IMG/VR virus record: IMGVR_UViG_3300032217_000845
Span: 1 to 64,000 of that record
Length of the DNA: 64,000 bases
Reading direction: 5' to 3' (one strand)
Source: a virus
Under the pieces are notes generated by a model. It was not told the origin of the DNA, did no database searches, and saw only the letters and a list, made by a program, of their open reading frames with translations. Numbering within the stretch: position 1 is the first letter of the stretch; each line of letters opens with the position of its first letter. This document shows, one piece after another, positions 42,943 to 62,738 of the stretch. Both the position numbers and the translations under genes were made by a program.

Positions 42943-42948
42943 TTAGGC

Positions 42949-43586: not shown

Positions 43587-43643
43587 TTTAGAAAAAGCCG
43601 AAAAGAACTTGCACAAGCGGAACAAAAGAGATAGGATGCACTT

Positions 43644-45364: not shown

Positions 45365-45689
45365 AGCAGCACTAGAGTCCTACCTAAGAAATCTATTAGG
45401 TCAGGCAATCGGAGCAGTTGTAATCGTTGGACAGACTTCGGGAATCGTATCCCCAGTCGACTTCGGCGTAGCAGAGTGGCTACTTGTAGCTAACGCTTTG
45501 TGGGCATCTGCAATCCCAACCCTCCTTCGTTGGGTAAACAAGAAGGACCCAGCATTTGGTCGAGTAGCCGAAGTAGTTGCAAAGGAAGTTAGCACTAAGC
45601 TAGTCACCGAAGCAGCAAAGGCAAAGGCTGTAAAGCCAGCTACTAAGCCAGTTGCAAAGAAGCCAACCCCTAAGAAGCCAAAGGCTTAA
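45357..45689 (+). CDS. holin-like membrane protein
   Basis: SYLR...two TM helices...LLRWVNKKDPAFG; basic tail. Confidence 0.65.
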   Translation: MNKAALESYLRNLLGQAIGAVVIVGQTSGIVSPVDFGVAEWLLVANALWASAIPTLLRWVNKKDPAFGRVAEVVAKEVSTKLVTEAAKAKAVKPATKPVAKKPTPKKPKA

Positions 45690-46143
45690 ATTGGATTTGG
45701 TGGCTCCAAGAAAAGCAGCCGAGGAGTTCGGAGTAACTTCTGGGATGATTTGGTATTGGCTGAAGAAGGGTCGCATTAACCGCTACCCAATTGAAGGCAA
45801 TACCAGAAACTATCTTGTGAGCTTGACCGAGGTGTGGGAGGCTATCGAATGGAAATCAAACCTAATCGATAGTCACCCTAACCTTGTCACACGGAAAGAA
45901 GCGGCAAGTCTAATCGGAGTAGTCGAGAAAGAAATCTCCTACTATGTCAAGATGGGTTATCTAAAGCCCCACTACATCTTTGGCAACGGCAAGCATTACT
46001 TAGTGGAGCGAGAAGAAGTTTTAAAGCAACCGAAACGGATTGCTGATATGTACTCTGCACCTGAACGGAAGCAGAAGTTGAGAGAGCTAGCCTTATCTCA
46101 ACCGCGTCAAGGCAAAGCCTTCGCAAAACGCCAAACCGACTAA
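45652..46143 (+). CDS. tandem MerR/excisionase-type HTH protein
   Basis: AAEEFGVT..MI.YW.KKGRI and TRKEAASLIGV...ISYYVKMGYL. Confidence 0.75.
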   Translation: MQRSQPLRSQRLKLDLVAPRKAAEEFGVTSGMIWYWLKKGRINRYPIEGNTRNYLVSLTEVWEAIEWKSNLIDSHPNLVTRKEAASLIGVVEKEISYYVKMGYLKPHYIFGNGKHYLVEREEVLKQPKRIADMYSAPERKQKLRELALSQPRQGKAFAKRQTD

Positions 46144-46200
46144 GTCCCATTTTGGGACCCCCACCTGTTAGTCTTGTATCAAGACTAGAACCGAGACAGC

Positions 46201-46449
46201 GTGGAAAAAGAAAAAGCAATCAAGATAAACTACGCCGCTGAATTAGCGGGGGTGTCGCAGAAGACTATCTACAACTGGATTAGCAACGGATACCTGCGTA
46301 TGTATCACCCTGGATTTGTCTTGTTTTCTGAAGTGCGGCGAGCACAGATAGTCATAAATAATCTTAAATCAGAGCAGTCTCGTAACCGAGTTAAGGTATC
46401 AAACCGAGACAATCTTGGACGCTTTACTACCAATCAGCAAACCGATTAG
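46201..46449 (+). CDS. MerR/excisionase-type HTH protein
   Basis: AAELAGVSQKTIYNWISNGYL. Confidence 0.75.
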   Translation: MEKEKAIKINYAAELAGVSQKTIYNWISNGYLRMYHPGFVLFSEVRRAQIVINNLKSEQSRNRVKVSNRDNLGRFTTNQQTD

Positions 46450-46691
46450 TATGCTACATTATGAAATGTTGTTTATGAATGGAGAAAAGGTAGCCGTCGC
46501 CCTCTCCACACGCAAAAAATCGTCTCGAGAAAATTACTGTACACTACGATTTGTACAACCGATTAAGAAAGAGTAACCTTACCAGCCATGATAAACTTGA
46601 TACGAAGGCACCTTCGTCACAAGTCCTCTCCCCAGCTGGCGAAGGTGTCTTCTTTACTTCGGACCACTAATACGAAGTTAAGGCCAACCGG

Positions 46692-47627
46692 ATGACCGAC
46701 TCAGAACTCATCAATGTTTTTAACCCAACCGGCGAGCAAGAAGAACGCGCCGAATATGTAATCGACGAACCGCTAGACCTACGTCCTGACCTGACCCTCA
46801 TCGGATTAGAAGAAGTTGACAAAGGTGTATGTGAGGATACATTTGAGAACCGACAAGTCTTGCGGCGAGCAAAGCTAAACTGGGACCCTGTCTACTCAAC
46901 CAACGGAATCCCAACGGGTCTCATTAGGGCCCGCTCCCAACAAAGTACTATCGAGCGTCGTATCCTCTCACTTAGTGAGAAGAAGCCAATCATGGTTGAC
47001 CCTGACAACCGCAACTCTGATTACCTAACCGGCCTGGACTTAGTAGCTGAGGAGAAGACCGACTACCTGGTACCGCCTTGGGTTATCGGAGCTACCCGAC
47101 TTTGGATTAAGGAACAAAACGAAGGCGGCCCGCGCAGCGAAAAGCGCAAGCCGCTAGCATTGCCGCACCGCTGTCGTCAGATTAAAGACGACACCATCCG
47201 ATGTATGCTATGGTCCAGCGGACGTCCGAATGATGACGGCTTGTGCCGCATCCATCTTCGTAGTACGAAACATAAGACTAGTGATGACATCGAACGGGCC
47301 CGCACTAAGTTGCAGCAAGCTGCACCGTATGCAGTTGACATGCTTGAAGACTTGATGGAGAACGCTGAGTCAGAACCGGTTAAGCTCAAAGCAGCAACCG
47401 AGATACTTGACCGAGCCGGCGTGCGCGGAGGAATAGAAATTGATTCAACCGTCAACATCGACTTGAGACCTGCGGCTAGCATCATCAGTGAGCGCCTTAA
47501 CCGCTTAGCCTCAGGGGCTATCGAAGCTGCAGGTAAGCTAGCCGCTGCAGGTGTTAGAGTAGAGACCGAGCAAGATATGATTGAAGCTGAAGTTGTTGAA
47601 GACAACGGCCAGGAAGAAGAGCGTTGA
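46692..47627 (+). CDS. hypothetical protein, terminase-small-subunit-like C-terminus
   Basis: C..C..C..H cluster, then AVDMLEDLM...VKLKAATEILDRAG and an IEAEVVE tail. Confidence 0.45.
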   Translation: MTDSELINVFNPTGEQEERAEYVIDEPLDLRPDLTLIGLEEVDKGVCEDTFENRQVLRRAKLNWDPVYSTNGIPTGLIRARSQQSTIERRILSLSEKKPIMVDPDNRNSDYLTGLDLVAEEKTDYLVPPWVIGATRLWIKEQNEGGPRSEKRKPLALPHRCRQIKDDTIRCMLWSSGRPNDDGLCRIHLRSTKHKTSDDIERARTKLQQAAPYAVDMLEDLMENAESEPVKLKAATEILDRAGVRGGIEIDSTVNIDLRPAASIISERLNRLASGAIEAAGKLAAAGVRVETEQDMIEAEVVEDNGQEEER

Positions 47628-47809
47628 GCAACATCGAATTTATAATCGAGGCGGCCCGCCTTCACTACGCCAATGTCACCTCTGACATACAGAACGCCAG
47701 TACCCGCCTCGAGCACATGAGATTAACCGCTCTAGCTCAGGAAGCTAAGAACCTGGTAACGGAGCTGGAGAACTTCGCATTAACCGATGAGCAGCGAGCA
47801 GCGAGCTGA
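47624..47809 (+). CDS. hypothetical protein
   Basis: 61-aa helical ORF overlapping the upstream stop. Confidence 0.5.
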   Translation: MSNIEFIIEAARLHYANVTSDIQNASTRLEHMRLTALAQEAKNLVTELENFALTDEQRAAS

Positions 47810-47841
47810 AGAGCTCAGCCGCAGAGAGTAACTTCACATTA

Positions 47842-48693
47842 ATGTTTCGAAATGACAAACCGGCCAGGGCCCAGGAATTCATCCAGGCAGCAAAGAACTA
47901 CTTAGGCTACGTAGCGGGACCGATGCTGCGGAACCAGTTCGGCGAGCGCGTAGGGTATAATTCACAACCGTGGGCTGGAGCATTCATTGACGTCGTTGCA
48001 CGTGAGTGCGGCCTGCAGTTACCATCTTGCGTTCAAACCGCATCCGGGCTAGCTGAGCTCATCAACAACGGATTAGTACGAAGTCGACCGCTGCCTGGGG
48101 ACCTGGTCTTTTTTGCCTTCTCCTCCGAAAACGCGGCGAGCGCTTTTGCAATGCCGCATGTTGGGATAGTCATCGATACACGTGAGTACAAGTCAACGGG
48201 TAGATTCCTTACCATCGAAGGTAACGTACGGCCAGCTAATGCAAAGTATGGCCAGGATACCGACGGCGTGCACCAACGGGTCCGCTACCAGGGAGACGTA
48301 CTTGCGTACATTCGTCCGAAGTTCAACGGCAGCCGCAGCGGCCTGCATCCGGTTCAACTTCTCATTAAGGTTATTGCGAAGCTGAGCTCGAAGACGGCCC
48401 GCCTGGAAGCAACCGCTCTTGAAGAAGCGGCCCGCGTACCTAAGGACGTGTCAACCGCTGCGCTGAAGCCAGGTCTACGTAACCGCTCCATCGAAGTGGT
48501 GCAGCTAGCACTGGGTGTAACCGTTAATCTGAAGTCAGCGACGCCAGGTACCTGGGATGCTGCAACCGCGAACGCCTTCGCTAGGTATCAACGTCGCATC
48601 GGATATGTTGGAACCGCTGCCAGTGGTAACGTTGACCGAGTCACGCTACAGAGACTGGCCGCTGAAACCGGACTCTTCCAGGTAACTGATTAA
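47842..48693 (+). CDS. CHAP-like domain plus peptidoglycan-binding domain protein
   Basis: PWAGAF, PGDLVFF, HVGIV, TIEGN; C-terminal LKPG...VQLAL...G.WD..T..A..YQ. Confidence 0.75.
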   Translation: MFRNDKPARAQEFIQAAKNYLGYVAGPMLRNQFGERVGYNSQPWAGAFIDVVARECGLQLPSCVQTASGLAELINNGLVRSRPLPGDLVFFAFSSENAASAFAMPHVGIVIDTREYKSTGRFLTIEGNVRPANAKYGQDTDGVHQRVRYQGDVLAYIRPKFNGSRSGLHPVQLLIKVIAKLSSKTARLEATALEEAARVPKDVSTAALKPGLRNRSIEVVQLALGVTVNLKSATPGTWDAATANAFARYQRRIGYVGTAASGNVDRVTLQRLAAETGLFQVTD

Positions 48694-48858
48694 TCCGAAG
48701 TTAATGCGAAGCTGAAGCTCGAGCTCCGGCCGCCGGCTGAACTTCGCACTAAGGATGAGAAGTTCTCCTCTTTTCTTTTTCCGACTCGCCGTCAAACCGA
48801 CTTGACATAATCTGCAGTGGTTGCTATAGTGAATCCATCACAACCGAAAGGAACCACA

Positions 48859-49059
48859 ATGCCTAAGTACTTCATAAGATTCGATGTTCGCGAAGACTGG
48901 AAGGGCACCTTTGATGCCGACAATCTTGAGCACGCCAAGGAACTAGTTCGCCAGTTAGCCGAAGATGAGATTGGCACGGATGAACTTCCAAACTTCGATG
49001 ACCGCAACATGGGGATTTCCATCGAGGTCTACGAGGACAGTCTTGAGGAACTACCGTAA
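48859..49059 (+). CDS. acidic hypothetical protein
   Basis: TTGACA-17-TATAGT promoter at 48802 and GAAAGGA RBS. Confidence 0.65.
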   Translation: MPKYFIRFDVREDWKGTFDADNLEHAKELVRQLAEDEIGTDELPNFDDRNMGISIEVYEDSLEELP

Positions 49060-49370
49060 TGTGCTACGCATGCGATGACTTTGAATTCGAGGAACCGTGC
49101 CCAACCAAGTTCCCAGGATGCCAAGGTAACTGTTACGGCTTCGACTGCGCGGCATGCTCAGCGAACACGCTTCACCTGGACGAGTACTACATGGTAACCG
49201 ATGAGGTTTGGGAAGCGGCCTGGCCTCAGGACCGCGGCATGCTTTGCATCGGATGCCTTGAGTCGAAGTTGGGAAGGACCTTAACCGCTGCTGATTTCAC
49301 GGATGCCCCAGTCAATGACGGAGTCTTCGGCCAGTCCGAACGGCTAGCGGCCCGCTTGGCCGCGGAGTAA
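49059..49370 (+). CDS. Cys-rich hypothetical protein
   Basis: YYMV.DEVW...LCIGCLE.KLGR.L...DF. Confidence 0.7.
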   Translation: MCYACDDFEFEEPCPTKFPGCQGNCYGFDCAACSANTLHLDEYYMVTDEVWEAAWPQDRGMLCIGCLESKLGRTLTAADFTDAPVNDGVFGQSERLAARLAAE

Positions 49371-49449
49371 CTTCGTACTAACGGCTTGCCTGGAAGACGG
49401 CGAGCGCCTTCCCCAAATCACTATCTCGAACAACGGGTATGCTAACCGT

Positions 49450-49767
49450 ATGAGACACATCGAGATTCACGTAATCGAAACCGAGTTAGACGCGGCAAGC
49501 GCAGTTGCATGCGGCCTGCTCTCTGACCCGTTCTTCGTAACCGTCTGTGCTGACTGCGGAGATGACGTTGGGGGACTCGACATCTTTGAACCGTACTGCC
49601 TAGTACTCGATGAGGTAACCGAGTGGTACCTGTGTACTTACTGCGCTGAACCTGTAACCGACCCAGACACTGTCGACTCCGACTACTACTCACTCGTTGA
49701 GGAAGAACTAACCGACCCTGACGAAGATGACGAAGATGACGGACGCTTTGTAGTTATAGATGACTAG
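49450..49767 (+). CDS. acidic zinc-finger-like protein
   Basis: CADC...CTYC; D/E-rich tail. Confidence 0.6.
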   Translation: MRHIEIHVIETELDAASAVACGLLSDPFFVTVCADCGDDVGGLDIFEPYCLVLDEVTEWYLCTYCAEPVTDPDTVDSDYYSLVEEELTDPDEDDEDDGRFVVIDD

Positions 49768-49822
49768 TTGTAAATCCCGTTTCGTAGCAGTGCCTTCCAC
49801 CGACTTCTAACTACTAATAAGA

Positions 49823-49851
49823 AGTATAGCACTCGACCGACATAAAGTCAA
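49823..49851 (-). promoter_or_regulatory. leftward sigma-A-type promoter
   Basis: Minus strand reads TTGACT-17 nt-TATACT with an extended TG. Confidence 0.65.
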
Positions 49852-50015
49852 ACACTTAGATACTTCTAAATAGAGAAGACATACTTTTAGAAAAAACGAA
49901 TACAAGCGACTAAGACCCTCTACGGAAAAAACGAATACAACTAAACTCATCAGCCGACACTCTGATTAGTAATAAGAAGTTGCTAAATGTCCGAGGGTGT
50001 GCTACTCTCTCTGGT

Positions 50016-50579
50016 ATGGAAATCACAACACTAACTAGACACGAATACACCACAGAACGAGTTGCCAAGCACACAGGCAGTTTGGAGGGTTGCTATGACG
50101 ACTTCCACGTTGGCGAAGTCAATGGCGTAGTTATCTACATAGGAACTGACTACGCTGGCACGATTGACCCTGCCAAGAACCCTTTGAGGTTCTCGGACTA
50201 CTCTGCGAAAGAGATGAAAGGCTTTCAGGAGTATTGGGGACATTGGGACGCTATCAACAAGCACCTCCACAACAAGACCACAAAACCGGGCTGGGGTCTT
50301 ATCAACCTAGTTGTCTATGGCTTTGTAAATGGCATACAGATTGGCGACCCTACAAATGTTCTACACGCTGTTCCAACAGGTTTCACGCCAGAGGCAAACA
50401 GGATAGACGCAGGGGAACTTGTCTGGGTAGAGGTAGAACAGGCTGTAATGGATTGGCTCAACTATCCAGATAGCCAGCCAACACTTCACGCAATAGCAGA
50501 GGCAAAGCGTAAGGAGGCTGTTGCTCTATTCACAGCGAGCCTAGACCTAATCCAGCCTCTCGCCACGCTGATAAAATAA
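50016..50579 (+). CDS. hypothetical early protein (leaderless)
   Basis: TTGCTA-17-TACTCT promoter ends 7 nt before the ATG at 50016. Confidence 0.7.
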   Translation: MEITTLTRHEYTTERVAKHTGSLEGCYDDFHVGEVNGVVIYIGTDYAGTIDPAKNPLRFSDYSAKEMKGFQEYWGHWDAINKHLHNKTTKPGWGLINLVVYGFVNGIQIGDPTNVLHAVPTGFTPEANRIDAGELVWVEVEQAVMDWLNYPDSQPTLHAIAEAKRKEAVALFTASLDLIQPLATLIK

Positions 50580-50674
50580 ATCAGAAATGAACTTGACAAC
50601 TTCGCATTAGTAGTGTAAAGTCGTCAGTAGTTGGAAACCTCCAACGCACAAACTCCGAAAGGACGGAAATACAA

Positions 50675-51154
50675 ATGGCAACAGGAACTATCGTTGGCAA
50701 GGGACTTTACTTAGAGTTCGTTCCAACAGACACCACCACTCCTAGCACTAAGGTAATGCAGGTGCTATTCACACCAGAGGGTATTGACGAGGCTGGCAAC
50801 TATGTTCAGTTCTCAATGCACTCTCGCACTATCTCTGAAACTTCACCTCGCAAACAATGGAGGATTACGAAGTGTGGCACAGAGAATAAAGAGTTGCTTT
50901 CACTTGGCTCTGTTGGACAGGTCAAGGCACAGGAACTCGCTGTCCAAATGGTAGAACGCTTTGAGAAATCACTAGAACGAGCAGTTATGCCAGACAAGAC
51001 AAATCCAACTTGGAAACTTCGGTCTAAGCCAATCGCTGTGGAAATCACTTCCTTTGACTTGTCTGAAATCACAGATTGGAAAACCCCTCTGCCAGCACTA
51101 CGCAGAATACAGAAATGTCGTGTAGCACTTGACTTCCCCGAGAAGTTAGTGTAA
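50675..51154 (+). CDS. hypothetical early protein
   Basis: Own promoter (TTGACA-17-TAAAGT) and GAAAGGACGG RBS. Confidence 0.75.
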   Translation: MATGTIVGKGLYLEFVPTDTTTPSTKVMQVLFTPEGIDEAGNYVQFSMHSRTISETSPRKQWRITKCGTENKELLSLGSVGQVKAQELAVQMVERFEKSLERAVMPDKTNPTWKLRSKPIAVEITSFDLSEITDWKTPLPALRRIQKCRVALDFPEKLV

Positions 51155-51189
51155 GGTCAATACTACAAACCGATAAGGACGGAAAACAA

Positions 51190-52212
51190 ATGACTACAAT
51201 CGCACCAAGCACCACTCCAACTACCGAGTTGGACGACATCTATCCAGACCTTGCTAAACTTGTGTATGGAGTTGCTATTCAGACACTAGACGCTGGCTCT
51301 GTGCCAGCAGGTCTTGATAGCCTACTTCCTACTGCTGGTCGTGCTAACCTCCGAGCAAAGGGAGGCGACACCACCACTAGCAAGAAAGCAAAGGTAGAAC
51401 TATTGGCAGAACCAATCACAGGTGCTACCACCTACACCAGACCAAATGGTCGTGAGTATTATGCTCGTCAATGGGGCGAACACTCTGACGTGGAAGTCTG
51501 TCGCAAGGCTCGGGATAACAAGCAGTTTATCCTACTATACGGAAATCCTGGCTGTGGTAAGACAGCACTCGTTGAGGCTAGTTTCGGGGACGACCTATAC
51601 ACCATTATTGGAACAGGCGATACAGAGGTTGGCGACTTCCTCGGTGGCTATGTCCAAACTCCAAGTGGAGGCTTTGAGTGGATTGACGGAGTTCTAACCC
51701 GAGCAGTTGAGGAGGGCAAAGTCCTCCTGATTGACGAGGTTGGTCTGATTGACCCGAAAGTTATGTCGCTGGTCTATGGACTAATGGACGGCAGAGATGA
51801 ACTCGTCATTACCTCCAATCCAGAACGAGGCACTATCAAAGCCAAGCAGGGGTTCTATGTAATCTGTGCGACTAACCCTAACGCTGTTGGAGTTCGTCTA
51901 TCAGAGGCTCTGCTATCTCGCTGTGTTATTCAGGCTGAAATGACTACTGATTGGTCGCTTGCCAAGAAGTTAGGTGTGCCAGCCTCGGCTACCACGCTTG
52001 CTCAAAACCTGTCTAAGAAACAACTAGCAGGTGAAGTATCTTGGTCGCCACAGTTCCGAGAGTTGGAGGCGTTTAGGGACTTGTCCAAGACCTTTGGAAC
52101 TAAGTGGGCAGTTGCCAACCTAATCGCAACAGCACCCGAAATGGATAGACCTGTCGTGATAGATGTGGCTACCCGAGTATTCGGTGAGGATTGCCGACCA
52201 GCCAAGATTTAG
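51190..52212 (+). CDS. MoxR/CbbQ/CobS-like AAA+ ATPase
   Basis: GNPGCGKT, W.DG.L..A, LLIDE, ATNP, LSEALLSR. Confidence 0.9.
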   Translation: MTTIAPSTTPTTELDDIYPDLAKLVYGVAIQTLDAGSVPAGLDSLLPTAGRANLRAKGGDTTTSKKAKVELLAEPITGATTYTRPNGREYYARQWGEHSDVEVCRKARDNKQFILLYGNPGCGKTALVEASFGDDLYTIIGTGDTEVGDFLGGYVQTPSGGFEWIDGVLTRAVEEGKVLLIDEVGLIDPKVMSLVYGLMDGRDELVITSNPERGTIKAKQGFYVICATNPNAVGVRLSEALLSRCVIQAEMTTDWSLAKKLGVPASATTLAQNLSKKQLAGEVSWSPQFRELEAFRDLSKTFGTKWAVANLIATAPEMDRPVVIDVATRVFGEDCRPAKI

Positions 52213-52338
52213 CACTCCGTCCTGTGCTAATAGGGGGAGGTCAAAGAAGTTGCGAAATGGACTTGACTTCCCCCGACAACTCTGCTACTATCTTACTAGG
52301 TCAGAAACGCTGACCAGAAAATCAGGAAGGATTTTCTA

Positions 52339-54147
52339 ATGGGACACTATTCCAGACTAGCAACACGCACCAGCACCACGCCTCCTGCTTGGCTCAAAAC
52401 CTGCTCGCAGATTGGCACACTCGCTAACACTTGGGCTAATCGTGGCGACCTCGCTGTCTATGGTGGTGAGGACGCAGGTATGGGTGAGGCTCTCGCTTGC
52501 TTTATTCACAGCACAGCAGAGATTGAGGTCAATCTACCAATCGCTTTCGGTAAGGCAACCACGCCTGAAATGGTGGGCGACCTAACAGAACGCTACAACC
52601 AATACGAGTTCCCCGAGGCAACAGGCGTAATCCTCCACGAGGCGTTTCACGCTAGATACTCGGAGTGGAACTACGAACTTATGGACGCTGAAACTAAGAC
52701 AGAGCCAAAGGTTCGGGACGCTTTTATGTTGTTGGAGGAAAGTCGTATTGAGGGGCTGGCTGTCTATCACTTCCCCGAGAACGCATTATTCCTACGAGCC
52801 TCCTCAATGGGGCTGTCTTTCGCAGAGGCAGAAACCTCTATGGAAAAGATGTCTAAGACAGGTGCTTTCGCACACCTCGCAGGTCTGACCCTTGCCAGAG
52901 TTTCGGCAGGTGTCCTTGACGAGTTTGATGTCGCTGGTATCTACAACAGAGTTGCCGAGGTCTTGGGCGAGAAGTGCCTGAAAACTTTGGAGGCTATCTG
53001 GGTAGAGTTCCAGACACTAGACAACACGCTAAACGCTGACCTACTTCGTGGGATTGACCTTGCTCGTAAATGGATAGAGGCTATCAAGGAACGAGCAGAG
53101 GAACGAGGCGAACCAGCAGAACCAGAGTTCGGTGAGGGTATTCCTATTCCACAGGAACTAGCAGAGGCTCTGTCCGAGATTATGGAGGCTCTGGGTGAGG
53201 CTATGGAGGAAACCAAGTCTGCCACAGCAGAGGCTCTGGGTGAGCAACAGCAGGACGAGAACCTGAAAGAGGAAATCAAGGAACGCCAATCCAAAGCCAA
53301 TACCAAAGAGGAACGCAAGGCAGAGGCAGACAGGGTGTTCTCGCACAACTCCACTCTCGGTCAATCTGGTAGCAGTTCCCGATTGGAAAGCACTCGTCCC
53401 CCGAAAGGTGAGGAACGAGCAGGGGCAGTAAAGTTGGCACAGATGTTAGAGAAAGCCAAGTATGTAGAGAGGTCTGCCACAGAGATAGCAACCACTATTC
53501 CACAGGGTCGCCTACGCACTCGGGCTGTCGTCCAAAAGAAAGCGTTGGAGGCTAAGGGCATTAGGTCTGACCTCCCGACTTGGAGGGCTACCAAGCACAA
53601 GCACACCACAGACCCTATCTTGTCTATCGGTGTAATGGTAGATGTATCTGGCTCTATGGGTTCGGCTATGAACCCTATGGCGAGTATGGCTTGGATTTTA
53701 TCCGAGGCTGGTCGCAGAGTTCAGGCTAGAACTGCTATGGTCTATTATGGCTCGGGTGTCTTTCCAACTCTCAAAGTTGGACAGCACTTGGAGGAGGTCA
53801 AGGTCTGGACAGCACCAGACGGAACAGAGGAGTTTGGTCAGGCTTACAAAGCACTTGACGGAGTTCTCGGTCTGACTTATGCCGAGGGCGTGAAGTTGCT
53901 CGTAATCGTATCTGACGGACACTACCGACCAGACCAAGAGAAACAAGTGGTCAAGGCTCTCGCAGAGTGCGACAAGGCTGGCGTGGGAGTTCTCTGGATT
54001 ACACCTGCCGAGTGCCGAGGTGGAAACACCAGCCTCATTAGTGGGACAAATGCCACGCACCTAAACATTACGGACACAGCCTCAATCGCAACTGCTATCG
54101 GCAGGTCGGCAACCGAGGCTCTGACTAAGATTGGAGGGCGAGTGTAA
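52339..54147 (+). CDS. VWA-domain protein with an N-terminal HExxH domain (CobT-like partner)
   Basis: HEAFH, LEESRIE; MIDAS DVSGSM, T, VSDG. Confidence 0.88.
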   Translation: MGHYSRLATRTSTTPPAWLKTCSQIGTLANTWANRGDLAVYGGEDAGMGEALACFIHSTAEIEVNLPIAFGKATTPEMVGDLTERYNQYEFPEATGVILHEAFHARYSEWNYELMDAETKTEPKVRDAFMLLEESRIEGLAVYHFPENALFLRASSMGLSFAEAETSMEKMSKTGAFAHLAGLTLARVSAGVLDEFDVAGIYNRVAEVLGEKCLKTLEAIWVEFQTLDNTLNADLLRGIDLARKWIEAIKERAEERGEPAEPEFGEGIPIPQELAEALSEIMEALGEAMEETKSATAEALGEQQQDENLKEEIKERQSKANTKEERKAEADRVFSHNSTLGQSGSSSRLESTRPPKGEERAGAVKLAQMLEKAKYVERSATEIATTIPQGRLRTRAVVQKKALEAKGIRSDLPTWRATKHKHTTDPILSIGVMVDVSGSMGSAMNPMASMAWILSEAGRRVQARTAMVYYGSGVFPTLKVGQHLEEVKVWTAPDGTEEFGQAYKALDGVLGLTYAEGVKLLVIVSDGHYRPDQEKQVVKALAECDKAGVGVLWITPAECRGGNTSLISGTNATHLNITDTASIATAIGRSATEALTKIGGRV

Positions 54148-54237
54148 TCGGCTCGCCTCCACAAGAACCCGATAGGGATTGAGCAACCGAGGAGTTTCCG
54201 TCCCCTTTCACCTCAACTGCTCTCGCTATTGGTAGAG

Positions 54238-54273
54238 AACCCCTGACAACTTCCCCTTTGGTCAGGGGTTTTC
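54238..54273 (+). terminator. intrinsic terminator with a C/U-rich loop
   Basis: AACCCCTGAC / GTCAGGGGTT followed by TT. Confidence 0.75.
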
Positions 54274-54470
54274 GCTTACCCTGACCGACACACAATGTGT
54301 CCAGCAAAAGCATCTCTGCTGGAACTTCGTATCAACTAATCCGAAGTCAGCCTGAGCTGCCGAGATGGTCGCCTTGTATTCGTTTTTTCCAAACCGACAC
54401 GCCTCCTCGCCTACTTGACAACTTCGTATTAGTTATGGTAAGGTCGTAGTATCAACCGAAAGGGAAACAA

Positions 54471-54767
54471 ATGGACGACAGAGAAATAGCAACTAACGCA
54501 TTAGTCCTACTAGGGGCAACTGCCGAGGGCTGTGCCGAGAATGGATTGGCTAATCCAATCCTGTATCAAAGTTTGGAACTAGCAATAGAACTAGCAGAAC
54601 ACCTAGACGAACCTGACCTAGTAGTGCTACTCAAATCAGCGTTGATTGGAGTGGGCGAGGGGATTGAGGAAACTATGGCTATCGTCAAACAAATCAAATC
54701 GCAGTTTGACTTTATGAACACAAGCGAGTATAATCAGGACACGACACCTAACAAGGAGGACAACTAA
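54471..54767 (+). CDS. hypothetical protein
   Basis: Promoter and GAAAGGG RBS. Confidence 0.7.
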   Translation: MDDREIATNALVLLGATAEGCAENGLANPILYQSLELAIELAEHLDEPDLVVLLKSALIGVGEGIEETMAIVKQIKSQFDFMNTSEYNQDTTPNKEDN

Positions 54768-55663
54768 TGCCAAACTGGGTCTATACATCTATGGCAGTAT
54801 CAGGTAAGAAAGACGACCTGCTCGCCTTTGCTAAGAAAGCCAGCCAGCAACACGAAACTCTATGGCTCACCGAGAGGTGGAAACGCAACGAGGACGGCAC
54901 GAACACCGAAGTCCCCGAGGAGGAACGCAAGATTGAGAAAGAACTATCTCCACCAAGTCCTATCTCGTTCTGGAACTTCTTAGCACCAACAGAGGAGGAA
55001 CTGCCTTACTACTTTGGACACGCAACCAAGCCAGAGGACGAGGCTGACCCTGACGCAACTTCCGAGGAACGACTAGCAAAGGCTCTGTTGTTTGAGGGCT
55101 CGGGCTGGTATGATTGGAATGTTCGCAACTGGGGCTGTAAGTGGGACGCCAATGACGAGGAACTGGACACCGACCTAGACACGCTACAACCACACGATAG
55201 CCTGTCGTATCGTTTCTCTACGGCTTGGTCTCCTGCCGAGGGCGTGTTTCGTGCTATGACCGAACAGCACCCCGAACTATCCTTTGAGTTCTCTTGCGAG
55301 GAGGAACAGGGCTGGGGCGTGGTCTATGACGGCGAGAACGGCTCGCTATCTGTGGCTGACGAGTGGGAGATACCGAACAGCCACGCTGACTATGTGGCGA
55401 GGGATAACGAGGACGGCTGTGCCTGTGCGAGAGATGACGACCAAGAGGATTGGTATTCCGATTGTCCTAGACCGAGTGTTGAGGTTGTCGTAGTGGTAGA
55501 ACACCGATACAAGATTACAGCACCGACCATAGCCGAGGCTTGGGAACTTGCTCTCAACGGCAACCCTGCTGACCTGACGGCAAGCCTGATAGAGGGCGAG
55601 ACTACTGCCTTTGTGATAGGCGAGGACGGCAAGCGTATCTACCCGACCTTAGAGAACGCATAA
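54767..55663 (+). CDS. YubB/DUF1281-like ferredoxin-fold protein
   Basis: MPNW, WYDWNVRNWGCKWDA, FSTAWSP, HPELSF...EE.G. Confidence 0.75.
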   Translation: MPNWVYTSMAVSGKKDDLLAFAKKASQQHETLWLTERWKRNEDGTNTEVPEEERKIEKELSPPSPISFWNFLAPTEEELPYYFGHATKPEDEADPDATSEERLAKALLFEGSGWYDWNVRNWGCKWDANDEELDTDLDTLQPHDSLSYRFSTAWSPAEGVFRAMTEQHPELSFEFSCEEEQGWGVVYDGENGSLSVADEWEIPNSHADYVARDNEDGCACARDDDQEDWYSDCPRPSVEVVVVVEHRYKITAPTIAEAWELALNGNPADLTASLIEGETTAFVIGEDGKRIYPTLENA

Positions 55664-55707
55664 CGGCTCGCCTTGACTAATCAGACGGATTGGTGTAGGG
55701 TAGCCTT

Positions 55708-55941
55708 ATGAGCAAGAACGCAACCGAGGAGTTTGTAGATGTCCTGATTACTTGGGACACCGAGCAAACCGATACAGATGAAGTCGTAGTAGCAATCGGG
55801 GACGGGTCGGTAGTCTATGACGAGGACTTCGCCTTTGACCCCCGAGTGTATTTCTACTTTGATAACCGAGAGCAGTTTGAGTTAGCAAAGACCAAAATAA
55901 TAGAGGACATAAACTTCCAAATCCTACGGGTTTTGGACTAG
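55708..55941 (+). CDS. acidic hypothetical protein (leaderless)
   Basis: TTGACT-17-TAGGGT just upstream; D..VYFYF motif. Confidence 0.65.
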   Translation: MSKNATEEFVDVLITWDTEQTDTDEVVVAIGDGSVVYDEDFAFDPRVYFYFDNREQFELAKTKIIEDINFQILRVLD

Positions 55942-55958
55942 CAAGAAACGGAGTAAAA

Positions 55959-56192
55959 GTGCCAAAGACAAAGCAGATAGATACTTGGGAGTGGTTCATA
56001 GAACGCTACCAAGAACTCGGCTACAAATCACTAAATCAGTTTGCTATCGCAGAGGGCTTTCAGAAGTCCAGCCTTAGCAGATACTTCCACAAGCAAAGAC
56101 AAATGCCAGCAGATACCTTGGTGGCTGTTTGCCTTGCTCTCAAAGTCAAGCCAGAGGATTTGCTGGTTGCTCTGAACGAGTGGAAACGCTAG
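55959..56192 (+). CDS. XRE/Cro-like HTH protein
   Basis: SLNQFA...FQKSSLSRYF...L..VC.AL.V.PEDL. Confidence 0.8.
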   Translation: MPKTKQIDTWEWFIERYQELGYKSLNQFAIAEGFQKSSLSRYFHKQRQMPADTLVAVCLALKVKPEDLLVALNEWKR

Positions 56193-56428
56193 ACCAACCC
56201 CGATAGGGAAACACCTGAGCAAGTGTTCTAAACTGCTCGCCACAATCTGCCTCCGTTTGTATTCGTTTTTTCCTCGGACTTGCGAAATGTCGGAGGCTGT
56301 GATACACTCGCTAATGTGAAGTTCTCCGATAGGACGACACACCAGAGCAAATGAACTTGACAAAGTTTCGTAAGTCTGGTAAGTTCTAAATGTAAAGCCC
56401 AATGATACTAAGTAGATAAGGAAATCAA

Positions 56429-56806
56429 ATGGCAACTACAAAGAGCACCACCACTAAGGGACAGGTTATCCTGACCACCACCAATGAGCCAGAGGTTCGC
56501 CTCTCGGCAAAGGGACAGAAAGCAGTTCGGGAACTCCGAGACGCACACAACTTGGAAAAGCAAGTTGCCGAAATCGTCAAGGCTAGCAGAGATGTTATCC
56601 TCAACGAACTAGGGAACGAGCAGACCAAGTTTGGAACAGACGCAAAGGGTAAGCGTCTGGTCAAAATCCACCTCATTACCCCGAAAGACCCAACACGCTA
56701 CAACACAGCAGAGTTGGTAGCGTTCCTCGCAAAGACACAGCCAGAGGTTCTGGAAATGTTTAGAGCAGAGGACGCAAAGGCGACCACCCGAGTTCTTACT
56801 CTCTAA
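56429..56806 (+). CDS. hypothetical protein
   Basis: Tandem promoters and TAAGGA RBS; followed by a terminator. Confidence 0.7.
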   Translation: MATTKSTTTKGQVILTTTNEPEVRLSAKGQKAVRELRDAHNLEKQVAEIVKASRDVILNELGNEQTKFGTDAKGKRLVKIHLITPKDPTRYNTAELVAFLAKTQPEVLEMFRAEDAKATTRVLTL

Positions 56807-56825
56807 CGAGAGTAAGCCAGAAAAG

Positions 56826-56866
56826 CCCCGACAGACAGTTATCCCCTTTCACTCTGTCGGGGTTTT
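56826..56866 (+). terminator. intrinsic terminator with a C/U-rich loop
   Basis: CCCCGACAGA / TCTGTCGGGG followed by TTTT. Confidence 0.8.
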
Positions 56867-56986
56867 CGCCTATCTGGTTTTGGCTCGTTTGTATTCGTTT
56901 TTTCCTCGCATCTAAAATCTTCGGGTTTGACAACGACACACTAATACGAAGTTGTAAATGTCAGAGGTTTATGGTAGAGTGCTGGT

Positions 56987-57436
56987 ATGGACAAAAGACA
57001 AACTAACAACTGCGAAATCTGTGGCGAGTTATTTACTGACCTACCACTTGACGAGGAGTGTTCTTGCTCAAAGAGAAAGGACGCTGCTTTCTATGTCAAT
57101 AGTGATGGTGGCGAGTTCGTGTGGAACCCTAAACTCAATGAGGACGAGGGAGAGAAACACGAATACTATGTTGTGCGTAATGGGGAAATGCGTATCAAGG
57201 CGACAGATGGCAAGGGTAGAGATTATGTCCTACGCTACACAGAGGACTTAGAGGCTTTCGGTATCACGACAGACGAGCAACTTTACGAGGCAAGCACAGA
57301 CGAGGAAAACTTCTATTGGGATATGAACTCTTGGTTTGAGGTCTGCTGTGATTTTGACGAGGCTTACTCTGATGTCTTTGACGACCTTGACAGAGCCATA
57401 GCAGAGGCAGTAAGATTACGAAAGGAAGGACACTAA
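56987..57436 (+). CDS. acidic hypothetical protein (leaderless)
   Basis: TTGTAA-17-TAGAGT ends 6 nt before the ATG. Confidence 0.7.
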   Translation: MDKRQTNNCEICGELFTDLPLDEECSCSKRKDAAFYVNSDGGEFVWNPKLNEDEGEKHEYYVVRNGEMRIKATDGKGRDYVLRYTEDLEAFGITTDEQLYEASTDEENFYWDMNSWFEVCCDFDEAYSDVFDDLDRAIAEAVRLRKEGH

Positions 57437-57723
57437 TGAAACTACGAATAGCGTTTGGCGACACTCTTAGAGAGATACGACAAGACCAACACAGAACTCT
57501 TAGAGAGGTGTCTGTAAAGTCTGGCGTGGCACTTGGCTATGTATCGGAAGTAGAGAGAGGGCAGAAAGAGGCTTCATCGGAAGTCTTGGAAAGCCTGACC
57601 AACACGCTTGGCGTGTCTATGGCTGACTTCCTAATCCTTACAGCGTTGCGTCTAGGTGCTGTCGCTGTCCCCGACACAGCAGAAACCCTACTTGACGAAT
57701 ACACCGACCTTGTGGTAAGATAA
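57436..57723 (+). CDS. clgR: ClgR-like XRE transcriptional regulator
   Basis: GDTLR..R..Q.RTLREVS....VALGY.SEVERGQKEASSE.L, the actinobacterial ClgR signature. Confidence 0.8.
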   Translation: MKLRIAFGDTLREIRQDQHRTLREVSVKSGVALGYVSEVERGQKEASSEVLESLTNTLGVSMADFLILTALRLGAVAVPDTAETLLDEYTDLVVR

Positions 57724-57742
57724 GGGAAAGGAAAGGACGACA

Positions 57743-57952
57743 ATGAGCAGACAAGTTTATTTTGTAATCGGTGTTGATTTAGACGACAAAACAGTTTTCA
57801 TAGATGACGGCACATTTACGGCTCGCTTTGGTAAAGACGAGCAGGTATGGGACACCGATAAACAAGAGTGGCGAGAATACGAGGGCGAGGAACAAGAGGA
57901 ATACGACCTCGCCTTAGAAATCCTCAACACCGAGAAGTTGAGGGACGACTAA
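57743..57952 (+). CDS. acidic hypothetical protein
   Basis: Strong RBS; 69 aa. Confidence 0.7.
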   Translation: MSRQVYFVIGVDLDDKTVFIDDGTFTARFGKDEQVWDTDKQEWREYEGEEQEEYDLALEILNTEKLRDD

Positions 57953-58257
57953 TGGAATACGACCTATACTCACCCGAGAGGAACTTCTCGGCTATCCCTG
58001 ACCTGAAACTTGTAAAGATTACAGGGGACGACAGGGACAGAAGTATTCACTTCCTCTGGCGAGGCGATAGACAATGGCTCGCTATGAGTAAGGATAATCC
58101 TTACGAGGATAACTGCTGGCTTGTAGTCAAGACCGACTACACAGACGAGTTTCAGGAGTTTCTTGACGAGGAACTCTCTGGCTACGATAGCCTAGAAAGC
58201 ACCTTTGAGTTATCGGACATTATTCCAACCGAATACTCAATAGAGTTTGATAACTAA
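57952..58257 (+). CDS. acidic hypothetical protein
   Basis: TAATG coupling; start at MEYDL. Confidence 0.65.
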   Translation: MEYDLYSPERNFSAIPDLKLVKITGDDRDRSIHFLWRGDRQWLAMSKDNPYEDNCWLVVKTDYTDEFQEFLDEELSGYDSLESTFELSDIIPTEYSIEFDN

Positions 58258-58266
58258 ATAGACTTG

Positions 58267-58525
58267 CTTGATACACGCTGAACCATTTTGGTGCGTGGGC
58301 AGAACTAACTACCTGCCTATTATCAAGGAAACCGAGTGAAATCTCGCTAAACTACGGACAACACGCTCGGTGGTGAATACGCCTCTGGTGGAAGTAGCAG
58401 GTCGGGTCTAGAACTGACCAAGAGTTTATTCTCAATGCGAAATAGCACAATGACGCAAAGTAGCCCCTTGTGTGTTCGTCCGAACCTAAGACCAGATAGC
58501 CATAACGCTTTCTGGTCTTTCTCTT
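58267..58525 (+). ncRNA. candidate large structured RNA followed by a terminator
   Basis: Nested helices CTTGATA/TATCAAG, CACGC/GCGTG, GGCAG/CTGCC, CGGACAACAC/GTGTT-C-GTCCG, GGTCGG/CTGACC; terminator AAGACCAGA/TCTGGTCTT. Confidence 0.6.
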
Positions 58526-58673
58526 TTTGGTGAGGTGTTGTATTCGTTTTTTCTCTACGCCTACTGTGGAAAGAGGGAACTTCGCATTAGTGTTTCGTTC
58601 TTGACAAATGTCAGAGGAGTATGCTAGTATCACTATGTAGTCAGAAAGTCTGACACAGAAAGGGTCTAGTCCT

Positions 58674-59159
58674 ATGGGATTGGATATGTATTTAGAGGCT
58701 CGCAAGTATGTAAGTGGATACTCTCACAGACCTATTGACGAGCAGAACGAGTATGAGGAAGTGCTGAACTCGGTAGGTATGTCAAGAACAGACCTAACAG
58801 CAGAGGCAAGTCCTTTCGCTAATGTAAGTATAAATGTTGCTTATTGGCGTAAGGCTAATCAGATACACGCTTGGTTCATCAACAACTACGCCAAAGATGG
58901 TGTAGATGATTGTAGCCCTGTCCATCTTGGCGAGAGATACCACCTTAGTATTCTAAGAAACCTCTGCCAAGAGGTCATTGACGACCACAGCAAAGCAGAG
59001 GAACTTCTGCCTGTTTCATCTGGCTTCTTCTTTGGGTCAGACGAGTATGGCGAATACTACTTCCAAGACTTAGAGAACACCATTGAGCAGTTGGATAAGT
59101 TGCTCTCTAATCCTAAGTTTGCTGAGGGCTGGGACTTCATCTACCAAGCAAGTTGGTAG
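58674..59159 (+). CDS. conserved phage hypothetical protein
   Basis: MGLDMYL, YWRKANQIHAWF, LLP..SGFFFG...Y.EYY, YQASW. Confidence 0.8.
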   Translation: MGLDMYLEARKYVSGYSHRPIDEQNEYEEVLNSVGMSRTDLTAEASPFANVSINVAYWRKANQIHAWFINNYAKDGVDDCSPVHLGERYHLSILRNLCQEVIDDHSKAEELLPVSSGFFFGSDEYGEYYFQDLENTIEQLDKLLSNPKFAEGWDFIYQASW

Positions 59160-59336
59160 CCACAAACTAAGCACGACCCCTTAGCACACGCTAGGGGGTT
59201 TTGCTTTACCTGTTTGCTGGCGAGGTGTATTCGTTTTTTCAGACGACACGGCACGGCACGGGAACTTGACTAAACAAATGAACTATGATACTATGTAGAT
59301 ACAACGGGCGAACAGGAAGTAGCCTGAAAGGGATAA

Positions 59337-59708
59337 ATGGAAACTACAACTATTACGGGTCTGGTAGCAACCACACCACGACACCTAGTATCAGCAGACG
59401 GCTTGCCGATTACTTCTTTCCGATTGGCGAGCAGTAATCGCAGGTTTGACCGAGCCACTATGGAGTGGGTGGACGGCGAGACTAATTGGTATACGATTAC
59501 CTCTTTCCGCACACTCGCAATCAACACCGCTACATCTATCAGCAAGGGCGACCGCATTGTTGTATCAGGCACACTTCGTATTCGTGATTGGGACAACGGC
59601 GAACGGGTAGGAACTAGCGTTGAGTTAGAGGCGAGCAACATTGGACACGACTTAGCGTGGGGGACTACCACCTTTGTCCGAACCGTTCATAAAGCAGACA
59701 CCGAATAA
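59337..59708 (+). CDS. ssb: single-stranded DNA-binding protein, actinobacterial type, without acidic tail
   Basis: TITGLVAT.P, FRLAS..RRFDR...WVDG.TNWYTI..FR.LA, KGDR.VV.G.LR.RDW, IGHDL.WGT. Confidence 0.9.
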   Translation: METTTITGLVATTPRHLVSADGLPITSFRLASSNRRFDRATMEWVDGETNWYTITSFRTLAINTATSISKGDRIVVSGTLRIRDWDNGERVGTSVELEASNIGHDLAWGTTTFVRTVHKADTE

Positions 59709-59885
59709 CCGAACGGCTCGCCTAACGGCGTGGGATTGGCAAGCCTAACGGCTTGCCTTTCTGCGTTTGACGGCAAGCCTATTGGCGAGCAGACGGCAAG
59801 CCTAACGGGTGTGTCAGGCTTGACAAAGACCGACCGCTATGGTAGGCTAGCAGAGCAGACAACCCTGCCAACCGATAGGACAGAA

Positions 59886-60128
59886 ATGACAACCGCACTA
59901 CCCGAACTAACCGAGATGACCACCAAGACCGACCAACCGATAGTCGCACTCTACAACCGAGACGACAGACTAACGGGTATCGTAAATGGCTGGAAAGTCG
60001 CTGACGGAGTAATGGAAATGGACGAGAGTATCAAGCGAGCAGTAGCGACTAGCGAACTGACTATGGCTGAACTCGTTGAGATTGACCAGAGTATCGCCAG
60101 ACTTCGCAACTTGCGTGGAACTCTCTAA
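59886..60128 (+). CDS. hypothetical protein
   Basis: TTGACA-17-TAGGCT promoter at 59820 and AGGA RBS place the start at 59886. Confidence 0.65.
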   Translation: MTTALPELTEMTTKTDQPIVALYNRDDRLTGIVNGWKVADGVMEMDESIKRAVATSELTMAELVEIDQSIARLRNLRGTL

Positions 60129-60304
60129 ACAAAACTAGCCAAGTGGAAACACTTGGTTTTAGTTTTAGCCCGAAGTGTATTCGTTTTTTCCCTGCGTAAA
60201 TTTTGCTGAAAATAAAATCCTAAATGAGTTTGATTTTGTCGGGAGTATGTGGTAGGGTATAAATGTAGTCAGAAATACTGATTATCCAATCACTCTGAAA
60301 GGGT

Positions 60305-60667
60305 GTGGTAAAAGTGGAAACACTAAACCAAGTAGTAATAACAAAGTCGGTCAATGGCGTAGAAGTTGCCACGCTATCTGAACTAGGGATTTTGCTAGGC
60401 GTAAAGCCAAGCACTATCTTTGTCTGGATAGATAAATACAAGAACTTCCCTAAGCCTGTTGCCGAAATCAAAGGTGCTGGTCGTAATGGGCGTTCTCGCT
60501 TGTTCCCGATTGACGCTGTTCAGGTGTGGCACAAGAAACACATTACGACACGCAAGGCTAACGAATGGACAGGTATTCTTTCCAAGTTGAGCCAAATCTC
60601 AAAGGCTAGTCCTGCCACTTACAAAATCATTCTGGAAATGATTGACGAAGCGTCAGGTCGCAAGTAG
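60305..60667 (+). CDS. AlpA/excisionase-like HTH protein
   Basis: LSELG.LLGV.PSTI.VW....NFPKP...LF....V..W. Confidence 0.75.
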   Translation: MVKVETLNQVVITKSVNGVEVATLSELGILLGVKPSTIFVWIDKYKNFPKPVAEIKGAGRNGRSRLFPIDAVQVWHKKHITTRKANEWTGILSKLSQISKASPATYKIILEMIDEASGRK

Positions 60668-60847
60668 CCACACGACACTAGACTTACCCCCTGCTAATCA
60701 CAGGGGGTTTTCTGGTTTTGGGACACGACTAGTTTGTATTCGTTTTTTCCATCACGACACACTTCGCACTAACACGCTTGACTTTATTTAGAAACTATGC
60801 GATAATAGAGATGTTGTCGGGAAAGGCTCGGCACGGAAAGGGATAAA

Positions 60848-61171
60848 GTGGGCGACAGGTCTGCGATTATCATTGAGAGTGAAAGGTTCATCACGCCTAT
60901 CACGCTATACGGACACTGGTCGGGCAGGAACAACCTTGCTGCTGTGGCTAGTGTGTTGGAAACTACGGACAGGGTTGGCGACCCGTCTTATCTCACGGCT
61001 CAACTGTTTTACAAGTTTGCTGTGGAACTTGGCAAGTATGACGGAAATCTGTCTTTCGGTATTGACGCTTTCGGTGGGACACCACAGGAAATAAATGCGA
61101 CTATGGACACCGATACGATTGTCGTAAATGCCGATAATGGAACTTGGCGTTGGGCGATACCCGTAGAGTAA
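60848..61171 (+). CDS. conserved phage hypothetical protein
   Basis: MGDRS.I, LY.HW.G, R.GDPSYL. Confidence 0.75.
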   Translation: MGDRSAIIIESERFITPITLYGHWSGRNNLAAVASVLETTDRVGDPSYLTAQLFYKFAVELGKYDGNLSFGIDAFGGTPQEINATMDTDTIVVNADNGTWRWAIPVE

Positions 61172-61187
61172 TCTTTATACGAACGCA

Positions 61188-61224
61188 GGTTAGCACTCAC
61201 GCAACACGAGTGCTAACCTCTTTT
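61188..61224 (+). terminator. intrinsic terminator
   Basis: AGGTTAGCACTC / GAGTGCTAACCT followed by a T-rich tail. Confidence 0.8.
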
Positions 61225-61384
61225 CGTTTTTGCTTAGGTAGAAGTTGTATTCGTTTTTTCCGGCAGCGACAGATAACTTCGCATTAGCGACACGAAGTTA
61301 GACAGACTTGCGTTTGTCGCTAGTGTGTGATACAATGAAGTTATTACACAGGCGAGAAACCTAAGTATCGCTGAAAGGGAAACA

Positions 61385-61807: not shown

Positions 61808-62018
61808 ACACGACACGAGAAAGGTCGCTGACTTCGGTTGGCGACTTTTTTTGTATCTGCCGATTACGGAGTTGTATTCGTTTTTTCCTCACCCCTGCCG
61901 AACACGACTTCCCTGTTATCTATTTGTTATAAAACTTTCTACACTTCGGGAATAAATGAACTTGACTTTTAGTTATACTCTATGTAATAATGTAGTTATG
62001 GACAACGAAAGGGAAACA

Positions 62019-62546: not shown

Positions 62547-62738
62547 ACTCACGCTAAGAAAACCTAACCCCCGTGAAAACTCACGGGGGATTTTCTTAGT
62601 GCGAAGTTGCGAAGGTGTATTCGTTTTTTCCTTACTCTACAAACACGGTGGAAGTATTACTTGCGTAAATCCATAAGGTATGGTAAGATAGTTAGGTAGT
62701 CAGAAAGTCTGGCACAATAGAAATCCTGAAAGGGAACA

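Follow-up and report, generated by a model that had tools for sequence, protein, structure and literature searches.

Which factor, if any, reads a five-letter word that is written again and again, almost entirely on one strand, through a run of phage genes? The question is raised by the IMG/VR virus record IMGVR_UViG_3300032217_000845, whose positions 1 to 64,000 were analysed (the window). The window is the first 64 kb of a phage genome of 125,776 bp, held in a single contig, and the nearest named relative of the phage is the uncultured freshwater Actinomycetia phage DSL-LC01. Between 46028 and 49714, AACCG occurs 42 times on the + strand. We found that this array is real, conserved, independent of coding and one-way, and that it is anchored on the likely gene for the small terminase subunit (terS) in all relatives. 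Our favoured explanation, to which we assign a probability of roughly one in three, is that the array is a dispersed zone, acting as DNA, in which the terminase would recognize the phage genome at this gene and take its direction. The features central to the argument are the following.

46028..49714, + strand: the AACCG array, 42 words; the degenerate class RACSG, to which AACCG belongs, has 71 members on the + strand and 8 on the - strand.
46692..47627, + strand: a family-conserved TerS-like protein of 311 amino acids (aa); in relatives the array starts at its start codon.
46928..49355, + strand: a second one-way word, GGCCCGC, interleaved with AACCG; 7 copies on the + strand and 0 on the - strand.
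49768..49979, no strand assigned: the border region, with short hairpins followed by early-cassette boxes and the first early promoter.
49850..64000, and on to about 80.2 kb of the genome, + strand: the palindrome-purged early block, with 0-4 four-base palindromes per kb.

The rest of the genome carries AACCG 77 times on the + strand and 69 times on the - strand. This rate predicts 2.38 copies for the array span, and the enrichment is 17-fold. Shuffles of positions 46001-49750 that preserved dinucleotides gave 5.57 +/- 2.40 copies with a maximum of 16 (n = 1000), compared with the 42 observed. When the whole genome was divided into 2-kb bins, the zone held 22 and 20 + strand copies and every other bin held at most 9. 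When every 5-mer was scanned without bias in 4-kb windows, AACCG in the zone came out as the strongest local enrichment of the genome (Poisson p ~5e-36, uncorrected). The first-pass annotation, made from the letters of the window, had counted 42 AACCG words and one CGGTT, which is AACCG on the - strand, and had seen the density collapse at about 49.75 kb to about three copies in the next 4.3 kb. The 42 words were borne out, but CGGTT occurs twice, at 47377 and 48350. The collapse is likewise present; the next 4.3 kb hold two copies on the + strand, not three, and none on the - strand. The last 270 bp of the array, with seven sites, are its densest stretch. It had further been claimed that the words fall in all reading frames, in several genes and in intergenic DNA. 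This agrees with our count of 6 sites in frame 0, 9 in frame 1 and 22 in frame 2, which is favoured; of the remaining sites, one lies in a doubtful small open reading frame (ORF) and four lie in about 406 bp of intergenic DNA. ORFs cover about 89% of the span.

The bases that flank AACCG sites carry almost no information and the spacing of the sites is even. A longer motif or a dispersed repeat behind the 5-mer was rejected, as the flanks are near-random and no repeat family carries the word, and a tandem repeat was rejected as the source because no tandem array contains AACCG. The longest direct repeats in the zone are imperfect and measure 32 nt at most. A minimum spacing of 18 bp was also considered; none of the 41 gaps is shorter here, but the loci of seven relatives have 0-2 shorter gaps each and the idea was dropped. 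CGGTT is not depleted in the zone (2 seen, 2.5 expected), whereas CGGT is depleted on the + strand, with 2 copies compared with expectations of 12.3 under a maximal-order Markov model and about 10 if the zone had the frequency seen elsewhere in the genome. The second word, GGCCCGC, has one copy in the rest of the genome, and its degenerate form CGGCCYG occurs 10 times on the + strand of the span and 0 times on the - strand. Two other words are skewed by strand in the zone, CGGCNNGC (23 vs 2) and ATCGA (13 vs 4).

Could such an array arise without any reader? A codon dialect rich in GC and CpG, together with coding-strand asymmetry, might yield one-way words as a by-product of composition. The zone does have a raised GC content (0.50-0.52 vs 0.45; 5-8 points higher) and is rich in CpG, with 283 in 3750 bp compared with 188 in 3707 bp of the genes for the large terminase subunit (terL) and the portal. 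Frame 2 holds 22 of the 42 sites, and several sites lie on conserved residues, for example at columns 249 and 639 of the TerS-like alignment, which are shared by 20 of 20 sequences. Synonymous shuffles of eight ORFs gave 14.7 +/- 2.8 AACCG words, about six times the genome rate. However, the maximum of these shuffles was 22 (n = 500) and the observed count was 38, which is 2.6 times the mean and above all 500 shuffles; one of the 38 sites (45778) falls just left of the array span. Shuffling the order of codons gave 8.2 words. Thus, codon dialect explains a part of the excess, but not the rest.

The same excess is found in relatives. RACSG exceeds synonymous shuffles in the TerS-like and lysin-like genes of most relatives, while the neighbouring AAA ATPase gene (51190-52212 and its homologues) falls below them in 13 of 13 sequences, on both strands. 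This shortage may follow from the purge of palindromes and CpG. Genes inserted into the zone in relatives take on the words. Last, we compared coding and non-coding DNA in 35 relatives, where non-coding was defined as DNA under no + strand ORF of at least 40 aa. Non-coding DNA in the zone carries 13.6 words per kb on the + strand and 1.7 on the - strand, and ORF-covered DNA carries 12.4 and 3.0. Outside the zone, non-coding DNA has 2.9 and 1.9 words per kb (+ and - strand) before it and 4.1 and 1.3 after it. Because non-coding DNA matches coding DNA in both density and polarity, an origin in composition only is largely refuted, and we regard it as very improbable. Amino-acid and codon usage, which the first-pass annotation had named as the explanation that would undo its proposal, do not account for the words on their own (14.7 in shuffles vs 38 in the ORFs, with non-coding DNA as dense), and its view of an orientation-dependent signal overlaid on genes holds at the level of the sequence.

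If the words are a signal, they should be kept where the genes are kept. We assembled two sets of relatives. Set 1 contained 28 IMG/VR loci found with the 311-aa protein, together with DSL-LC01 and one whole contig. Set 2 contained 80 loci found with the AAA ATPase, of which 35 were non-redundant with at least 6.5 kb of upstream sequence. The TerS-like gene is present in all 35. At its start, RACSG on the + strand of set 2 rises from 2.6 to 6.6-7.7 per 500 bp; the raised level lasts about 2.5 kb, and beyond about +3 kb the density has dropped to 1-2; on the - strand it is 1-2 throughout. CGGCCYG has the same profile. The best upstream 3-kb window of these loci holds 17-58 RACSG words on the + strand and 0-17 on the - strand, and controls for the picking of windows were far weaker (median excess 29, compared with -3 in the reverse orientation and 13 downstream). 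In set 1, a one-way RACSG array runs from about -1 kb to +3-4 kb of the 311-aa gene, with raised GC and palindromes, and in the closer clade it is followed by an immediate drop to the purged block. In L010 and L015, the array runs through extra genes up to the border of the early block.

The class of word is conserved, while the preferred member of the class is not. AACCG is preferred here and in L014, AACGG in L005-L013, and GACGG in L016-L019 and DSL-LC01; AACCG itself is not enriched in DSL-LC01 (14 vs 10 in 12.7 kb). Among the three most one-way 5-mers of each of the 35 loci, AACGG appeared in 18, GACGG in 5 and AACCG in 3. In the TerS-like alignment, some sites are fixed in 20 of 20 sequences, and others turn over or switch from ACC to ACG within the word class. 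Three close relatives, all metagenome loci, allowed single sites to be followed. L123 (97% DNA identity) keeps 32 of 35 sites, with 30.6 expected. L125 (85% DNA identity) keeps 28 of 40, with 17.4 expected; motif bases were substituted less often than other bases (19/200, 9.5%, vs 594/3871, 15.3%; p = 0.025), and the same trend was seen at third codon positions (17% vs 28%; p = 0.06). Comparison with L125 also gave 12 sites present only here and 5 present only in the relative, and 3 of the 12 lost sites had become other RACSG words. In L127 (73% identity), the preference has shifted to AACGG. This pattern of retention, substitution and turnover indicates that the sites are under weak purifying selection and that their density is selected as well. 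The loss of the sites from syntenic regions, the other outcome held to speak against the first proposal, is not what these loci display: the array is kept and single sites turn over.

What might read the words? Known terminase recognition sites suggest one answer. In P22, SPP1 (pacL/pacR) and P1, the pac site is located within or next to terS, and cosB of lambda lies beside cosN. The array lies in and around the 311-aa gene, which on sequence similarity is the best terS candidate of the genome and is weakly small-terminase-like. The protein matches phrog_2538, ‘terminase small subunit’, at E = 0.0043; 8 of 19 members of its family match the same group, the best at 6.3e-5. The family profile matched the ‘Small Terminase subunit’ 7joq_I in the PDB at E = 0.011 and 6w7t_I at E = 0.28. 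The protein has conserved Cys and His residues, which suggest a zinc ribbon, and a helical part that weakly matches small-terminase models. No terS-like ORF adjoins terL at 83.4 kb. Thus, the claim that the array spans a terS-like gene is upheld, with the weak similarity that phrog_2538 and 7joq_I provide.

We propose that many weak, degenerate copies of RACSG (mostly AACCG), laid out one-way over 3-4 kb, would act together with the second word CGGCCYG. The packaging machinery would read these words, and its reader may be the TerS-like protein, perhaps with two small helix-turn-helix (HTH) proteins encoded at the left edge. From the array, the machinery would take both its assembly point on the concatemer and its direction of travel. 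The border of the early block would be the probable position at which the DNA is cut, because the array abuts the edge of the restriction-proof early block in this clade. Three points here are inferred: a protein reader for the array, the terminase as that reader, and a DNA end at the border.

Such a zone would resemble a pac or cosB site in its position in and around the likely small-terminase gene and in acting according to orientation, and would differ from one in its extent. Known pac and cosB sites have 1-7 elements within tens to a few hundred bp, and repeated short elements occur in P1 (hexamers) and in lambda, whereas the array has about 40-70 elements over 3-6 kb, a second word, and terL at a distance of 36 kb. 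A second likeness is to the words that orient translocases. FtsK-orienting polar sequences (KOPS) and SpoIIIE recognition sequences (SRS) direct FtsK and SpoIIIE; KOPS are 8-mers that are skewed over chromosome arms and switch at dif. Like them, the array has dispersed one-way words, lying over genes, that would direct a DNA motor. Unlike KOPS, it is local (3-4 kb) and made of 5-mers, and the rest of the genome is unbiased (77 vs 69). In a wider form, which we put forward tentatively, the packaging motor or another phage translocase may be addressed and oriented by a KOPS-like, kilobase-scale, dispersed one-way code of five letters instead of a compact pac or cos site. This code would drift between lineages (AACGG in most, AACCG here, GACGG in others) and, in this clade, would also mark the border of the restriction-proof DNA that enters first.

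Several observations weigh against a terminase zone. Known terminase recognition sites are compact, with few sites within a few hundred bp, and here terL is 36 kb from the array. The size of the array varies, from 3.7 kb here to 2.5-6 kb in relatives, reaching about 6 kb in L015. A single reader does not predict a second, unrelated one-way word in the zone, and the raised GC and CpG are left unexplained by a terminase. No helical phasing of the sites was found (Rayleigh z at most 2.4 for all periods tried). The 311-aa protein has no Pfam match at the curated cut-off, and its AlphaFold model has a mean confidence (predicted local distance difference test, pLDDT) of 51.6. It has more than 2,000 homologues; the named ones are all ‘hypothetical protein’, and the matches in the ESM Atlas were to unnamed viral clusters only. 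Finally, the preferred word does not follow the similarity of the protein: the TerS-like proteins of L005-L009 are 83-84% identical to ours, yet these loci prefer AACGG downstream (16-17 copies vs 3-4 of AACCG), and that of L014 is 73% identical, yet L014 shares AACCG.

According to annotation transferred from DSL-LC01, replication genes lie at 4-17 kb and the ribonucleotide reductase (RNR) gene at 26.6 kb; genes for the AAA ATPase and a vWA protein lie at 51-54 kb, terL at 83.4 kb, the portal gene at 85.5 kb and the gene for the major capsid protein at 104.6 kb. The other features of the zone are as follows.

45652..46143, + strand: a 163-aa ORF with an HTH_17 (excisionase/MerR-like) domain; its 3' portion holds the start of the array.
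46201..46449, + strand: an 82-aa ORF whose HTH_17-like domain scores slightly below the Pfam cut-off; 10 of the 28 IMG/VR loci have a homologue.
47624..47809, + strand: a 61-aa ORF with no function assigned; 2 sites.
47842..48693, + strand: an endolysin-like ORF of 283 aa, with PHROG matches only; 10 AACCG sites.
48802..48830, + strand: a promoter-like site (TTGACA, 17-nt spacer, TATAGT) with 11 of 12 matches.
48817-49059, 49059-49370 and 49450-49767, + strand: three small ORFs, with 10 sites together.

The 82-aa HTH protein was considered as a partner that might covary with the preferred word, but no clean pattern was seen in nine sequences. A centromere-like role, another of the early suggestions, finds no support: there is no ParA or ParB match among the 20 neighbouring proteins scanned, no such gene beside the array, and no tandem array with the word.

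Because all credible genes of the zone lie on the + strand in every relative examined, and none is inverted, the polarity of a DNA signal cannot be separated here from that of an RNA signal. The words could be sites in + strand transcripts for an RNA-binding protein or a sequence-specific ribonuclease that tunes late mRNAs. The non-coding stretches of the zone are still transcribed, and the array ends here at the hairpin region before the first early promoter. On the other hand, no Rfam family matched in the zone at E <= 0.1, and we know of no RNA regulator that needs about 70 sites per 4 kb. In this genome, the first word of the array falls within an ORF, some 660 bp upstream of the TerS-like gene. 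The promoter-like site within the zone means that it is probably more than one transcription unit, which suggests that several transcripts would share the array, and the coincidence with a palindrome purge that acts on DNA suggests a logic at the level of DNA. We therefore consider an RNA signal improbable.

In this genome, the array runs out at the final ORF of the zone, about 100 bp or less from where the 30-kb early block begins, and the first two early-cassette boxes, GAAAAAACGAATACAA, follow at 49890 and 49925. That the array lies next to the palindrome-free region had been pointed out at first sight of the sequence; its end falls exactly at the start of that region. The contrast between the two sides is sharp: four-base palindromes number about 35 per kb elsewhere in the genome and 65 at 47-49 kb, which is the genome maximum. 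Across the 35 relatives, the strength of the array rises as the early block becomes poorer in palindromes (Spearman -0.64, p = 3e-5).

These observations raise the idea of a brake on injection, as in T5. The early block would enter the cell first, from its right end at about 80 kb, and transfer would pause when the one-way words reached a channel or a DNA-binding protein, until early proteins had disarmed the host. Polarity would matter, as the passing DNA meets the channel in one orientation, and the position of the array, its relation to the purge and its palindromes would be in keeping with such a brake. However, the array is also present in relatives with an unpurged early block (for example, 52 words on the + strand and 7 on the - strand in L063, and 45 and 7 in L104). 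A fully purged AAA gene is found in just 7 of 78 loci and, because of this, the array must be older and wider than the purge. Its anchor across the family is the terS gene, not the border. In addition, the zone holds none of the window's eight matches to TTWTNCACA, the DnaA-box consensus. The T5 report (bioRxiv 10.1101/866236) describes a stop region that is full of repeats and palindromes, lies in the terminal repeat, is untranslated and has long repeats, inverted repeats and DnaA boxes. The two are alike in being rich in palindromes and in lying at the edge of a block that is seemingly built to meet host nucleases first, and they differ in that the zone is coding, has no long repeats or DnaA-box-like words, and occurs without a purged block. 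We think a brake on injection improbable; a terminase zone fits both the anchor at terS and the position of the border.

Restriction could also select for one-way words. In the case of T7 and EcoP15I, sites in one orientation evade Type III restriction, and the bias extends over the whole genome without enrichment. We rejected evasion of this kind here, as the enrichment is local and 17-fold and the rest of the genome is unbiased (77/69).

If a DNA end does lie at the border, a different enzyme could meet the words. In a cluster of Chi-like hotspots, a helicase-nuclease, either a host enzyme of the RecBCD or AdnAB type or a phage helicase with a PD-(D/E)XK nuclease, would recognize the words on one strand. 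It would enter at the end near 49.8 kb and move to the left; on recognizing the words it would cease to degrade the DNA, and a recombinase would be loaded, protecting the end and seeding recombination. The geometry of this genome fits an enzyme entering from the right, with the word on the top strand and the sharp edge and densest stretch on the right. The sites are irregularly spaced and not phased, and the preferred word varies by lineage, as host-specific Chi words would; it is conceivable that two one-way words serve two nucleases. A RecA-like protein, a helicase and a PD-(D/E)XK nuclease are encoded by the phage itself (homologues at 4.4-7.9 kb, by transfer from DSL-LC01). In the contigs of four of four public runs, the sequence divides into alternatives at 45303-45561, a mosaic junction at the level of strains just to the left of the array, and the genes at 43.3-45.7 kb are poorly conserved among relatives.

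By analogy, a Chi-like cluster would be the closest in form to a published case (PMC12315714). There, 20 of 23 Chi sites of LLS-class lambdoid phages have one orientation and cluster at the right end inside genes, and phage MD8 of Pseudomonas has 32 Chi sites in one orientation and 0 in the other. As in those phages, the array has tens of short, non-palindromic words that lie within genes, clustered and nearly all co-oriented (42 vs 2). The published cases have a known 8-mer, a known host and a mapped cos end, whereas here we have a degenerate 5-mer and assembled contigs alone, and the Chi-rich phages of that study (PMC12315714) are without a recombination module, unlike this phage. Other points also argue against hotspots. 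A 5-mer with degenerate positions is a poor discriminator, and the sharp edge of the array across the family is the left one, at the start of terS. Moreover, if the early block enters first and hence is packaged last, the end at the array would be held by the terminase and would not be free. We thus regard Chi-like hotspots as possible, though rather unlikely.

Both possibilities have consequences. If the terminase reads the array, this would be a new kind of packaging signal, in which many weak one-way words over kilobases take the place of one compact site. It would also offer a way to find the origins and directions of packaging in thousands of uncultured relatives from sequence only. If the words are Chi-like, freshwater actinobacteria, a group in which the recombination machinery is, to our knowledge, unstudied, would gain their first candidate hotspot words. 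Either way, the array and the palindrome-free block together give an outline of how an abundant but never cultivated lake phage handles its DNA, in terms of the part that enters first and the place of the cut.

At its right edge, the early block of this genome has no array in mirror image, and none is among the top local 5-mers of G001. Two other candidates for similar arrays were discarded. At 70-80 kb of the genome (L039), TGCGGT (26 on the + strand) and CTGTGG (22 on the + strand) lie within long conserved promoter cassettes, for example between TTGACT and TAGAAT. In DSL-LC01 (L002), CACGCA occurs 30 times on one strand at 46.0-46.7 kb, inside an annotated hypothetical gene just after terL, and this array was set aside as a low-complexity CA/CG run.

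The contigs of the locus have features of their own. Seven of the 28 IMG/VR contigs break off on the upstream side of the 311-aa gene, at a distance of 0.2-5.5 kb. These stops were considered as physical genome ends and rejected; because near-identical contigs stop at different places, they are assembly breaks at a variable region. Contig word-depth has two steps within 40001-60000: in run X1, from 24 to 33-34 near 51.9 kb, and in run X3, from 29 to about 48 near 45.4 kb. Contigs of both runs also join 49.94 kb to 56.25 kb (49939-56251) and skip 6.3 kb between two early-cassette boxes. This join, whose short side is only 20 letters, may be a repeat artefact or a variant in which a cassette is deleted. 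A scan of genome contigs found only two that encode a relative of the RNR of the phage. One of them, L044, is a 106-kb contig in a metagenome-assembled genome labelled Cyclobacteriaceae; its RNR is 74% identical to that of the phage, and it is probably a mis-binned contig of a related phage.

Within the zone, an element of 14-17 nt, AACTTCNCATTAA, occurs five times, at 47767, 47826, 48352, 48739 and 49365, mostly at the ends or starts of genes, and a related element, TAATNCGAAGTTAA, occurs at 46668 and 48691. The early block itself holds a second, small cluster of the word at 59681-59959, with seven + strand AACCG copies, of which five share a 90-bp stretch around a small gene's start, and repeated GCAAGCCTAACGG words lie just upstream of it.

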